From an uncultured Pseudohongiella sp. (GTDB taxonomy: Bacteria > Pseudomonadota > Gammaproteobacteria > Pseudomonadales > Pseudohongiellaceae), in the NCBI GenBank assembly GCA_902597095.1, contig CACJWK010000011.1, positions 207 to 64,206 on the forward strand: a DNA stretch of 64,000 nt, written 5' to 3'. The first letter of the stretch is position 1. Each line of letters starts with the position of its first letter. The position numbers were made by a program, and so were the translations under genes. Shown here in pieces: positions 52,875-64,000 of the stretch. The notes under the pieces are model-generated. The model worked only from the letters and a program-made list of their open reading frames with translations. It ran no database searches and had not been told where the DNA came from.

Positions 52875-53486
52875 TCAATTGTGATACAGGAAGAGCGTGA
52901 AGAAATCAGTCTCTGGCGAGTTTTTCATGCGAATATTTCCACTTAGCTGCTGGCAATATTCAAAGATTTCATCCGGGTCATATGACACCAAAATCCCATT
53001 ATCGAATCCCGCATCCAGATGCTTAAGCAAGCTCAGACCCACCCCTAGACGAGATATACCATACAATTTAGAAATCATTCTCTGAATAAAGCCACTTTCA
53101 CTGGTTTTATAATTGAGCGCACCAATACAGACCACAAAATCACTAACAGGAAGCAATGCTGAGCCAAACTCGCCAAGCAGAAGTTTCGCGTTCGTGCTTC
53201 CTTCAAGGTTACGCCAGGCTTCCCGTAAAAACGAACTGGATTGATCTATTCCCGTATAGCGTAAATCTCTATATCGATTCATGAGAAAATGATAGAAGTC
53301 GGCCTGGCCACAGCCGACATCAAGAACTGATTTTCCATTTAAATCAGCAAAATCACAGAAATCCTGAAAGCGTTTGCGCTGACTATCCTCGTTTTTCCAA
53401 CCTAAAGCTTCCACGGTTGATTGGCCAAATCGGGCGATCCGATCTTGGTGATAAGCCTTTACCATAGCGTTGTCTTTAGTCTGCAT
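52875..53486 (-). CDS. Class I SAM-dependent methyltransferase
   Basis: About 203 aa. It has motif I VLDVGCGQADF followed by YTGIDQS. The start is ambiguous (53504, 53486 or 53465), and the gene overlaps or abuts the stop of the 948-aa gene. Confidence 0.7.
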   Translation of the reverse strand: MQTKDNAMVKAYHQDRIARFGQSTVEALGWKNEDSQRKRFQDFCDFADLNGKSVLDVGCGQADFYHFLMNRYRDLRYTGIDQSSSFLREAWRNLEGSTNAKLLLGEFGSALLPVSDFVVCIGALNYKTSESGFIQRMISKLYGISRLGVGLSLLKHLDAGFDNGILVSYDPDEIFEYCQQLSGNIRMKNSPETDFFTLFLYHN

Positions 53487-62487: not shown

Positions 62488-64000
62488 TACGTAGCTTTCT
62501 CAAGCCTGTCCCAACTAAAGCTATCAGAGGTTTGCCTGCTATTCTGATCTAAAAGCTTAATTTCATGTAATAAGTATTTTAAGTATGCAGATTTATTTTG
62601 GATCCAGTGATTATGGATCCTGGTAAATTCTCGGTAATCTTCTGGAACAAGCCAATGGAATTCGACGGAATCAAGGCTTGTGTTATATTCAAGTATTATG
62701 TTTTCGATTATGTTCTTAAGCGCGTGGAAGTAATCTATTTGCCCGATCCGAATACGAAAAACAGAAAATTTAGGAAGCACAATACTTATTCTTCCATTAT
62801 AAAATTCAAAGTCATGAAAATTTGTCTTATTTATCTCGATCAGATCGGAATGATGCACAATTCGATACTCGAATTTATCAATTTCTAATTGGAGACTGGG
62901 CATGTTTGCGAGATAGCTTGATTCCTTATCGTCTTCACGCCTTGAACTTAACTTCAATTGCTCATATCTGGTGGCAAGCTTTTCAGAAAAAAGGCCTATT
63001 GACTCTCTTATTTGAAAATCCATCTTACTTCGCTCTAAATTTAGGCGATTCGCACGAAAACTTTGAATATTCAAAAACGTCAACAGCGACGCGCTCGCAA
63101 GATCAAACCCAAGGACTCTCCTACTTTCCAAGTTTCTTTGAAATTTAGACCAGATTTCATAGCGTTTTTCGAATTCGCACATCTCTTCGAATCCGAGCCA
63201 AAAGAAATCTACAGCGATATGAGAAGGGCAGTTTTTTCTGACGGTTTGTTCCGCGAAAGCCACAAAGCTCGGATCACTTGAGCGGGCCGTCCACTTCGGA
63301 AACAGTACACTTATTCGATTAGCATATTTTTCTTTCGATCTATCTGAGAGGTATTTGAAACCGCTCGGCCTAAGCAGTATGTGTTCGATAACATGCATGC
63401 CTTCTGATTCGAGACTTAGATCGATTAAAATCTTCCTTAAGATCTGAGCCTCAAGTTTCAGCGATCTTTGGCCAAGACCCTTTAGTAATGAGAGACTTTC
63501 TCGCTTTGCGCTATTTTCCGAACCGTCCAAATATTCGAGAATTAATTCATCTTGTTTTGCGTTATATCTGTAGTTCCTCTTCGCAATTCCAGCGCGAAGT
63601 GTTTTTAACCACAACTCTTCGTCATTAAGGACGCCAAATTGCGCGAGCTTACTCCTTATGAAAGTCGCCCTCTCTAACTCTGCAGCCGTATCATTCTCAC
63701 TCTCGGTGTTAGGTTTTTTTGATGAGCTGTCAGCAGATTTATATTGAAGGTGGTCGTAAAAGCTCAGACCCAATCTTAGTACTGGCGCGGTCAATGATCG
63801 AGCATGAAGATATTTGAAGCCCAGAAAAATACTGCTTCGATATTGTAATCCAGACATGTTTTGCAAAGAGTCATCTTCGAATTCTGTTCCCCCTGTAGGC
63901 TTTTCCGAAAGTGCATCAAACTCGCTAAAATTTTGGGCGCCGCCTCTATCTCCACTTGCGAACTTAATACGATTCAATAGCCGTATTTTATTAAGAATAG
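62487..64000 (-). CDS. eCIS-operon protein of unknown function; the ORF is open at the window edge (partial, C-terminal >=496 aa)
   Basis: The reading frame has no stop between the listed TTG (63977) and position 64000, so the gene probably starts outside the window. Its stop overlaps the tape measure start (TAATG). It contains HVIEHILLRP and two related modules ending FFWLGFEEMCEFEKRYEIW and EFHWLVPEDYREFTRIHNHW. Confidence 0.6.
   Translation of the reverse strand, partial: ILNKIRLLNRIKFASGDRGGAQNFSEFDALSEKPTGGTEFEDDSLQNMSGLQYRSSIFLGFKYLHARSLTAPVLRLGLSFYDHLQYKSADSSSKKPNTESENDTAAELERATFIRSKLAQFGVLNDEELWLKTLRAGIAKRNYRYNAKQDELILEYLDGSENSAKRESLSLLKGLGQRSLKLEAQILRKILIDLSLESEGMHVIEHILLRPSGFKYLSDRSKEKYANRISVLFPKWTARSSDPSFVAFAEQTVRKNCPSHIAVDFFWLGFEEMCEFEKRYEIWSKFQRNLESRRVLGFDLASASLLTFLNIQSFRANRLNLERSKMDFQIRESIGLFSEKLATRYEQLKLSSRREDDKESSYLANMPSLQLEIDKFEYRIVHHSDLIEINKTNFHDFEFYNGRISIVLPKFSVFRIRIGQIDYFHALKNIIENIILEYNTSLDSVEFHWLVPEDYREFTRIHNHWIQNKSAYLKYLLHEIKLLDQNSRQTSDSFSWDRLEKAT

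Follow-up and report, generated by a model that had tools for sequence, protein, structure and literature searches.

Distal end of a probable SalCIS-type contractile injection system island, with a SalCis20-family membrane protein, in a Pseudomonadales-like gammaproteobacterium

Among the contractile injection systems (CIS) of clade Ib, the machine of Salmonella enterica subsp. salamae, SalCIS, has been described recently (Ejaz et al., Nat Commun 2026;17:5272, PMC13266070; PDB 9RCE, 9R9A). SalCIS particles adjoin the inner membrane, and no extracellular particles or effectors could be detected (PMC13266070). The transmembrane protein of the system (9R9A) was named SalCis19 in the preprint (10.1101/2025.06.01.657177) and SalCis20 as published (PMC13266070). 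It was shown to be a homodimer with three transmembrane (TM) helices and a SleL-like periplasmic domain, whose peripheral localisation depends on a Sec signal (PMC13266070). Clade Ib also holds AlgoCIS of Algoriphagus machipongonensis (7AEB) and the thylakoid-anchored tCIS of Anabaena (7B5H). As far as the literature cited in PMC13266070 covers it, tCIS is anchored via extensions of its own baseplate proteins. Afp of Serratia entomophila and PVC of Photorhabdus belong to clade Ia. The present analysis concerns a 64,000-nucleotide stretch of DNA from an uncultured Pseudohongiella sp. (the window), in which five close-packed minus-strand open reading frames (ORFs) fill positions 52875-64000 according to the ORF listing. 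With a probability of roughly 0.8, positions 51357-64000 form the distal end of a SalCIS-type (clade Ib) CIS island of a Pseudomonadales-like gammaproteobacterium, in which a SalCis20-family protein docks the particle at the inner membrane. The system is a new variant of the recently described SalCIS-type clade Ib CIS.

The placement is carried by two baseplate proteins. The ORF at the window edge, which ends at 62487 and whose frame is without a stop up to 63998, aligns with full-length orthologues of 1018-1042 aa and has no Pfam, NCBIfam or PHROG family. In a comparison of its family profile with the Protein Data Bank (PDB), SalCis12 (9RCE_B) was the top match at 2.5e-89; All3315 and Alg12 were matched at about 1e-71, and Pvc12 and Afp12 at 1e-12 to 1e-14. 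On the strength of these profile matches, the edge ORF is assigned as Cis12, a gp6/gp7-like baseplate wedge or cage protein. As for Cis11, its gene was found on a 30-kb metagenome contig (L023; the labels L001-L034 denote the related loci and contigs compared with the window), which was returned by a metagenome scan with the tube-initiator family. The 3' end of this contig overlaps the last 833 bp of the window with about 94% DNA and 94% protein identity and, because of this overlap, it is taken as a surrogate for the DNA past 64000. Its 1375-aa protein, compared with all PDB sequences, gave SalCis11 (9RCE_A) as the top match at 9e-132, with 3e-73 for Alg11 of AlgoCIS, 5e-69 for All3317 of tCIS and 1e-15 to 1e-22 for Afp11 and Pvc11. 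Since both Cis11 and Cis12 match SalCIS far better than their Afp and PVC counterparts, the system is placed, as judged from these comparisons, with the clade Ib SalCIS-type machines and not with Afp/PVC. The label "Afp/PVC-like" of a preliminary description of this DNA is thus to be dropped, the values being 9e-132 and 2.5e-89 against 1e-12 to 1e-22. The word "extracellular" in the same description is doubtful, as the closest characterised system is located at the inner membrane, with no release observed.

The remaining structural genes are found on the surrogate contig. An exact look-up of the 1613-aa tape measure protein of the window matched no contig, and a genome scan with the edge-ORF family led to metagenome-assembled genomes of Pseudomonadales and Pseudohongiella and, more distantly, to Pleionea and Burkholderiales. 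L023 carries, in this order, a DUF4157/eCIS_core gene (HExxH), a divergent BTAD regulator, a Pvc16_N cap gene, a 298-aa gene (whose protein gave an empty PDB sequence search) and one sheath gene. These are followed by two gp19-type tubes, a CIS_tube/LysM tube initiator, a VgrG-like spike, PAAR and gp25 and, at the end, by the 1375-aa Cis11, a 290-aa protein and the start of cis12. The same structural set is present in the more distant loci L011 and L020. The sheath, tube, spike, PAAR, baseplate and cap genes that had been expected beyond 64000 do lie there on the same strand in L023, L011 and L020; the window itself ends in cis12. Within this lineage, the cap gene stands at the operon start (L023), so that its absence downstream of the ATPase gene, which had been regarded as unusual, is a matter of position.

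The second and third of the five genes are typical of CIS. The 1613-aa protein matched PF19268 CIS_TMP with an E-value of 3.7e-111 (373 bits; cut-off 27.8), which bears out its earlier reading as a tape measure, and its gene, cis14, lies between cis12 and the ATPase gene in every related locus. A PDB sequence search gave no relative of it. The ATG of the 457-aa ATPase overlaps the tape-measure stop codon (ATGA). The ATPase matched PF00004 AAA with an E-value of 2.5e-29, and its closest solved structures are D2-type modules of Cdc48/p97 (about 1e-39). It is 457 aa long in L001-L007, L011 and L029, against 459 aa in L014 and a listed 477 aa in L010, with 58-80% identity across these orthologous loci. 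An AAA+ ATPase gene adjoins the tape-measure gene in all 14 of the 14 loci reaching that position, and it is by position that the protein is assigned to Afp15, as had been proposed. With the two genes inside the window, the view that this is the distal end of a CIS operon was right. NCBIfam, PHROGs and PADLOC yielded no specific match to the tape measure, to the 948-aa protein encoded next or to the DUF900 protein of the island. The same searches gave only generic AAA matches for the ATPase, the IetA/IteA-like ones well below cut-off, and its candidacy as a defence gene was rejected.

Sheath, tube, spike and gp25 families are also common to phage tails. A degraded prophage tail or tailocin (R-type bacteriocin) remnant, lying beside unrelated membrane and methyltransferase genes, would account for those families; the hallmarks of extracellular CIS (eCIS), namely CIS_TMP, the Pvc16_N cap, CIS_tube, a dedicated AAA+ ATPase and eCIS_core/DUF4157, speak against it. 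In the 9.8 kb upstream of the L023 tube initiator, there are no capsid, portal or terminase genes. The genes are intact, and their order is conserved across bacterial orders at 21-80% protein identity; its recurrence in more than 10 independent loci shows that the gene order is not due to chance. The contigs of the five close relatives of the 948-aa protein encode proteins of about 1370 aa, about 290 aa and about 1020 aa, CIS_TMP, the 457-aa AAA protein and a roughly 940-aa membrane protein, always in this order. Next come a methyltransferase gene, which some of them lack, and a convergent DUF900 gene; the flanks farther out vary. The likelihood of a phage or bacteriocin remnant is considered next to negligible.

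Directly after the ATPase gene lies a gene for a 948-aa protein, which has no Pfam, NCBIfam or PHROG family. Its three membrane helices had been recognised, but the protein had been left without a place in any described system. Five close relatives exist among 5.8 billion clustered proteins, and the profile of this close subfamily matched chain B of 9R9A with an E-value of 3.1e-11. A broad-family profile of 64 proteins, including the C-terminal 479 aa of the window protein, matched 9R9A with an E-value of 3.2e-78 over residues 341-859. On the basis of these profile matches, the protein is counted as a member of the SalCis20 family. The broad family comprises 345 clusters at 50% identity with E <= 1e-3, 168 of them at E <= 1e-10, in a profile search of 1.84 billion representative proteins, and most of the 345 match the C-terminal half alone. 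The survey of the family covered 156 proteins, namely the 150 matches listed, the window protein and its five close relatives. Of these, 142 have two or more hydrophobic helices at the C-terminus, 98 an N-terminal hydrophobic segment and 117 a YG[FY][YFW]P motif. The same-family protein of Pleionea sp. CnH1-48 (L014; about 21% identical, E 3e-18) is also encoded directly after the ATPase gene, as are those of the Burkholderiales loci.

The predicted topology of the window protein resembles that of SalCis20. The hydropathy profile gives three C-terminal helices (Table 1), and the AlphaFold2 model agrees with them (825-846, 852-877, 879-905). The tail behind the helices is basic, with 11 K/R against 2 D/E. 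Inspection of the N-terminus showed basic residues after M21, followed by the hydrophobic stretch TFWLGIVLLALSLF and, in homologues, by small-residue sites; it looks like a Sec signal. A putative Sec N-terminus together with three C-terminal helices and a basic tail would thus place the large domain in the periplasm and the tail in the cytoplasm. This topology also bears on the idea that the 948-aa protein and the methyltransferase are payload toxins for target cells. In Afp and PVC operons, the position downstream of the Afp15-like ATPase is the site of the Afp17/18 and PVC payloads, and enzymatic effectors that target eukaryotes are common in eCIS. Nevertheless, a putative Sec N-terminus and three membrane helices are incompatible with cytoplasmic loading into the tube lumen, and the homologue SalCis20 localises to the envelope of the producer (PMC13266070). 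Moreover, across Gamma- and Betaproteobacteria the 948-aa protein equals the structural genes in conservation and synteny, and the operon contains a separate DUF4157/HExxH effector candidate. A role as cargo is therefore highly improbable.

The periplasmic part is predicted to be GH18-like. AlphaFold2 modelling of the C-terminal 479 aa with 64 sequences reached a pLDDT of 84.4 and a pTM of 0.81, and a Foldseek search of this model against the PDB (entries up to 8 April 2026, 9R9A not among them) gave 49 matches with E <= 1e-3, nearly all of them GH18 chitinases or chi-lectins (best 4e-6). An earlier run on the full 948 aa with 6 sequences was poor (pLDDT 55), with only suggestive Foldseek matches, SleL (4S3J) among them; it is superseded by the 64-sequence model. 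The prediction is in line with SalCis20, for which a SleL-like fold was reported. SleL, labelled an amidase in PMC13266070, is a GH18 N-acetylglucosaminidase, and this suits the predicted fold. Pfam gave no Glyco_hydro_18 match in the 948-aa protein. At the place of the GH18 motif DGxDxDxE, the window protein has MGDGLTLLFDNLEDP; with the register set by motif alignment, the sequences are DGLTLLFD in the window, DGITLDID in SalCis20 and DGvTLyFd in the family consensus.

Several observations weigh against the SalCIS-type placement and the docking role. The position of the catalytic Glu is occupied by Asp in 36 of the 64 family sequences and by Glu in 6 of the 64, and the second and third Asp positions of the motif are Thr and Tyr/Leu. 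Pairwise identity to SalCis20-type proteins is low, as the value for the Pleionea protein illustrates. About 450 aa at the N-terminus, acidic and helical, are confined to the subclade of the window protein, which has no PG_binding_1-like N-terminal motif such as that of SalCis20 and many short relatives. In SalCIS, the ATPase gene is on the opposite strand, with effectors there, whereas it is co-directional with, and translationally coupled to, the tape-measure gene here; the operon layout also differs, the DUF4157 gene being at the operon start in the lineage of the window. The structural genes were seen solely in the L023 surrogate and orthologous loci. Finally, anchoring by SalCis20 is a hypothesis in PMC13266070, where the mechanism is marked as unresolved, and an enzymatic assay of SalCis20 was not found in that paper. 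Because the canonical acid/aspartate motif of GH18 is not conserved, the 948-aa protein is not classed as an active GH18 enzyme, and glycan binding seems at least as plausible as hydrolysis.

The fold is shared with GH18 enzymes that cleave wall or chitin, including SleL and YdhD, and classical eCIS are thought to exit by lysis (PMC13266070). The GH18-like protein could accordingly be imagined as a signal-anchored wall hydrolase of the endolysin type which, perhaps with the lipoprotein, lyses the producer and frees an extracellular CIS. The PG-binding-like N-terminal motif of many family members and the position at the operon end, as for phage lysis genes, would suit such a release module. It is nonetheless judged unlikely: the family does not conserve the canonical catalytic motif, a holin-like partner is not evident, and the DUF900 partner is without a nucleophile. 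Furthermore, SalCIS particles and effectors were not detected extracellularly (PMC13266070), and the retention of the C-terminal TM helices in 142 of 156 proteins, with a conserved basic cytoplasmic tail, suggests a contact in the cytoplasm and not simply a tether. Docking at the inner membrane is the reading preferred here, release by lysis being its main rival.

Among solved structures, SalCIS gives the best matches for Cis11 and Cis12. The locus and SalCIS further agree in having only one sheath gene, a cap gene located where the operon begins and a DUF4157/HExxH gene within it. In both, the SalCis20-family protein combines a signal-like N-terminus with a GH18/SleL-like periplasmic domain and three TM helices at the C-terminus. 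Besides the differences in strand and layout, the locus is distinguished by the acidic helical N-terminal region in place of the PG-binding-like motif, the added methyltransferase and DUF900 lipoprotein, the 290-aa gene between cis11 and cis12 and an environmental Pseudomonadales-like host. AlgoCIS and tCIS resemble it in their LysM tube initiator and long spike with PAAR, but their Cis11 and Cis12 matches (about 1e-69 to 1e-73) are weaker than those of SalCIS. Sheath, tube, spike, gp25, Cis11/12, tape measure, AAA+ ATPase and cap are likewise common to Afp and PVC. Unlike in those systems, cis12 abuts cis14 here (TAATG) without an Afp13-type fibre gene between them, the cap gene is at the operon start instead of after the ATPase gene, and a SalCis20-like gene, not toxin genes, follows the ATPase gene.

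The gene after the cis20-like one encodes a class I methyltransferase dependent on S-adenosylmethionine (SAM; E 7e-9; Pfam Methyltransf_31, _25 and _12). The loci L004-L007, L009-L011 and L029 have an orthologue behind the cis20-like gene, as do, with 33-34% identity, three betaproteobacterial loci (L013, L015, L016); the gene is absent in L001-L003 and in the Pleionea locus L014. All examined homologues with at least 44% identity are linked to CIS, and one relative with 36% identity stands alone. Relatives with 27-28% identity sit in NeuB/DegT/WbqC/PIG-L clusters for nonulosonic-acid or amino-sugar biosynthesis, which hints at a sugar-related ancestry of the CIS-linked enzyme. Its PDB matches are only generic small-molecule and RiPP N-methyltransferases (1e-3 to 1e-5). 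In the literature searched, no CIS-linked methyltransferase of this kind was found and none is mentioned for SalCIS, so the earlier remark that this gene falls outside the described CIS schemes stands.

Next to it, a convergent gene, which the preliminary description had not included, encodes a DUF900 protein with an alpha/beta-hydrolase fold (PF05990, E 2.3e-25). The gene is present in all Pseudomonadales-type loci, and in every one of them that has the methyltransferase it lies 9-27 nt from the methyltransferase stop codon. It is counted as part of the island because collinearity with the contig L033 extends to 51357, past the gene. The lipobox VAGC followed by Q is conserved in L001, L002 and L006, and the Gln at +2 makes an outer-membrane location of the lipoprotein probable. 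At the nucleophile elbow (Sm-x-Ser-x-Sm expected; about aa 263-270 in the window), the window protein has GEGMGS, the serine being replaced. The orthologues have AEGMGA or AQGMGA (L001, L004, L006) and AHDTGA (L011), and AHSLGA is found in L010 only. The nucleophile serine is thus missing in 6 of 7 orthologues, yet the protein has been conserved (35-47% identity), which gives it the look of a pseudo-enzyme retained in some other role. Its PDB sequence search was empty, and the literature searched does not link DUF900 to any CIS. In bacteria, DUF900 has no known function (PMC11878206); a homologue from an archaeon is a phospholipase that is secreted (10.64898/2026.06.10.730825).

The following mechanism is proposed. 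The tape measure would set the tube length, and the ATPase would assist assembly or cargo loading. The cis20-like protein, exported by Sec, would be held in the inner membrane by its three C-terminal helices, with the basic tail in the cytoplasm and the GH18-like domain facing the peptidoglycan, where it may bind or locally remodel the wall. It could then offer a docking or exit point in the envelope to cytoplasmic particles, so that the machine would act from or at the inner membrane and not solely after lysis. A cytoplasmic methyltransferase and a periplasmic DUF900 lipoprotein, catalytically dead here, would be accessory parts of the same island.

This arrangement invites comparison with the type VI secretion system (T6SS). 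In TssM, the TM helices are N-terminal; they are C-terminal here. In both cases, however, a three-TM inner-membrane protein with a large periplasmic domain and a lipoprotein gene nearby accompany a contractile sheath-tube machine. No sequence relationship to TssJ-TssL-TssM was found, and in contrast to that system the periplasmic domain is GH18-like and the lipoprotein has an alpha/beta-hydrolase fold. The analogy is also drawn in the SalCIS source paper (PMC13266070). A bolder version, in which the SalCis20-like protein, the dead DUF900 lipoprotein and the co-translated methyltransferase make up a dedicated trans-envelope docking and exit complex, functionally TssJLM-like and evolutionarily unrelated, is quite unlikely. 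If true, the machine would fire repeatedly from inside living marine Gammaproteobacteria, and a T6SS-style envelope complex would have been invented a second time, by convergence.

The locus extends SalCIS-type membrane-associated systems from one Salmonella subspecies to environmental Pseudomonadales, Pseudohongiella, Pleionea and Burkholderiales. The SalCis20 family proves to be sizeable and uniform (345 clusters), most members listed having the architecture of signal, GH18-like domain and three TM helices, and yet there is no Pfam model for it. The SalCis20-type "hydrolase" may be a glycan-binding anchor, given that the GH18 catalytic motif is not conserved. A methyltransferase is retained beside the cis20-like gene across two proteobacterial classes, and one subclade retains a periplasmic lipoprotein with a dead alpha/beta-hydrolase fold. 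GH18-like anchor, methyltransferase and dead lipoprotein are candidates for the missing parts of the CIS anchoring mechanism. The SalCIS-type machine itself has already been described; new here are the methyltransferase, the DUF900 lipoprotein without a catalytic serine and the tape-measure duplication of 174 aa. These findings leave the general view of contractile injection systems as it was.

The duplication is a direct repeat of a 174-aa unit at 522-nt spacing with 79% nucleotide identity; in a protein self-alignment, the two copies are 68% identical over 171 aa without gaps. Tandem Repeats Finder missed it, and it was detected by a direct-repeat search and the protein self-alignment. The independent contigs L033 and L034, with 95% identity to the window, carry it as well. 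The tape measures of relatives have 1336-1486 aa, and it is this duplication that accounts for the 1613 aa here. If the tape-measure length sets the tube length, a longer particle than in relatives is to be expected. In L033 and L034 (long-read assemblies from ENA, pilon-polished), the tape-measure, ATPase, cis20-like and DUF900 genes are each split into several called genes. As the frames are intact in the window and L023, these splits are most likely frameshift errors of the assembly and not real pseudogenes.

Table 1. Features of the island and of related contigs. Positions are those of the window unless a contig is named.
Feature	Position	Strand	Details
cis12, 3' half	62487-64000	minus	C-terminal 503 aa of a ~1018-1045-aa protein
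Tape-measure gene cis14	57646-62487	minus	1613 aa
Tape-measure tandem duplication	59086-60120	minus	aa 790-960 (nt 59608-60120) and aa 964-1134 (nt 59086-59598)
ATPase ORF (cis15)	56276-57682	minus	468 aa from TTG; 457 aa from ATG at 57649
cis20-like ORF	53476-56322	minus	948 aa from TTG; likely product 928 aa from ATG at 56262
GH18-like (beta/alpha)8 periplasmic domain	53923-54870	minus	~aa 485-800 of the 948-aa ORF; predicted model
Three C-terminal TM helices	53614-53847	minus	~aa 826-846, 853-876, 884-903 (hydropathy)
Methyltransferase ORF	52875-53504	minus	209 aa as longest ORF; 203 aa from ATG at 53486
DUF900 lipoprotein gene	51507-52853	plus, convergent	448 aa; PF05990
Distant methyltransferase relatives	L031 10001-10633; L032 1603-2229; L030 8901-9509		27-28% identical, clustered; 36% identical, solitary

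The close packing of the five genes, which had been noted before, can be read directly from the sequence at two junctions, TAATG at 62485-62489 and ATGA at 57646-57649. The cis20-like and methyltransferase genes overlap by 11 nt at 53476-53486, and the same overlap recurs in L004 and L006. In contrast, the overlap of 47 nt at 56276-56322 probably arises only from the TTG start of the longest ORF and is then an artefact, because all close homologues of the 948-aa protein begin at an ATG 20 codons downstream, at 56262 (928 aa in the close homologue P0001). A start at this ATG leaves a gap of 13 nt to the ATPase gene, which matches L001. Promoter and terminator scans gave fewer sites than in shuffled sequence.

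The G+C content is 0.385-0.416 over 54-64 kb of the window and 0.47-0.51 over 24-46 kb. Collinearity with L033, 95.1% identical, runs from 63495 to 51357 and ends about 150 nt past the start of the DUF900 gene. The low G+C content and the break at about 51357 fit an island that was gained by horizontal transfer and whose insertion context varies.

At the other end of the operon, the eCIS_core (DUF4157) gene of L023, outside the window, occupies 3267-4013 (E 1.2e-9; HEAWH at residue 197) and stands at the operon start beside the divergent BTAD regulator. In betaproteobacteria, a SalCgo1-like DUF4157/eCIS_core gene comes after the methyltransferase gene, at the distal operon end (L013 19877-20416, L015 20021-20560, L016 20253-20690). 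A conserved gene pair for proteins of 664 aa and 153 aa lies directly upstream of the DUF4157 gene (L023 597-3057; L018 101-1982). The 664-aa protein has a low-complexity N-terminus and a Gly/Ala-rich hydrophobic segment. The pair is without a Pfam match and may serve this CIS as an effector and its chaperone. The conserved gene of about 290 aa between cis11 and cis12 (L023 17326-18198, L001 552-1424, L011 7517-8395) encodes a protein without matches in Pfam or the PDB, a candidate SalCis13-like fibre or anchor, though at a different operon position.

Outside the island, the genes of the window are for ordinary chromosomal functions, namely a TonB-dependent receptor, M20 peptidases, MacB/FtsX permeases, a gamma-glutamyltranspeptidase and a TPR protein. 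Three plus-strand ORFs of 158 aa (17647-18123, 32620-33096, 41427-41903) lie antisense within minus-strand genes. Two of their host genes are paralogous M20 peptidase genes (31522-33183, 40347-41984), and the three ORFs are probably a by-product of paralogy and not genes.

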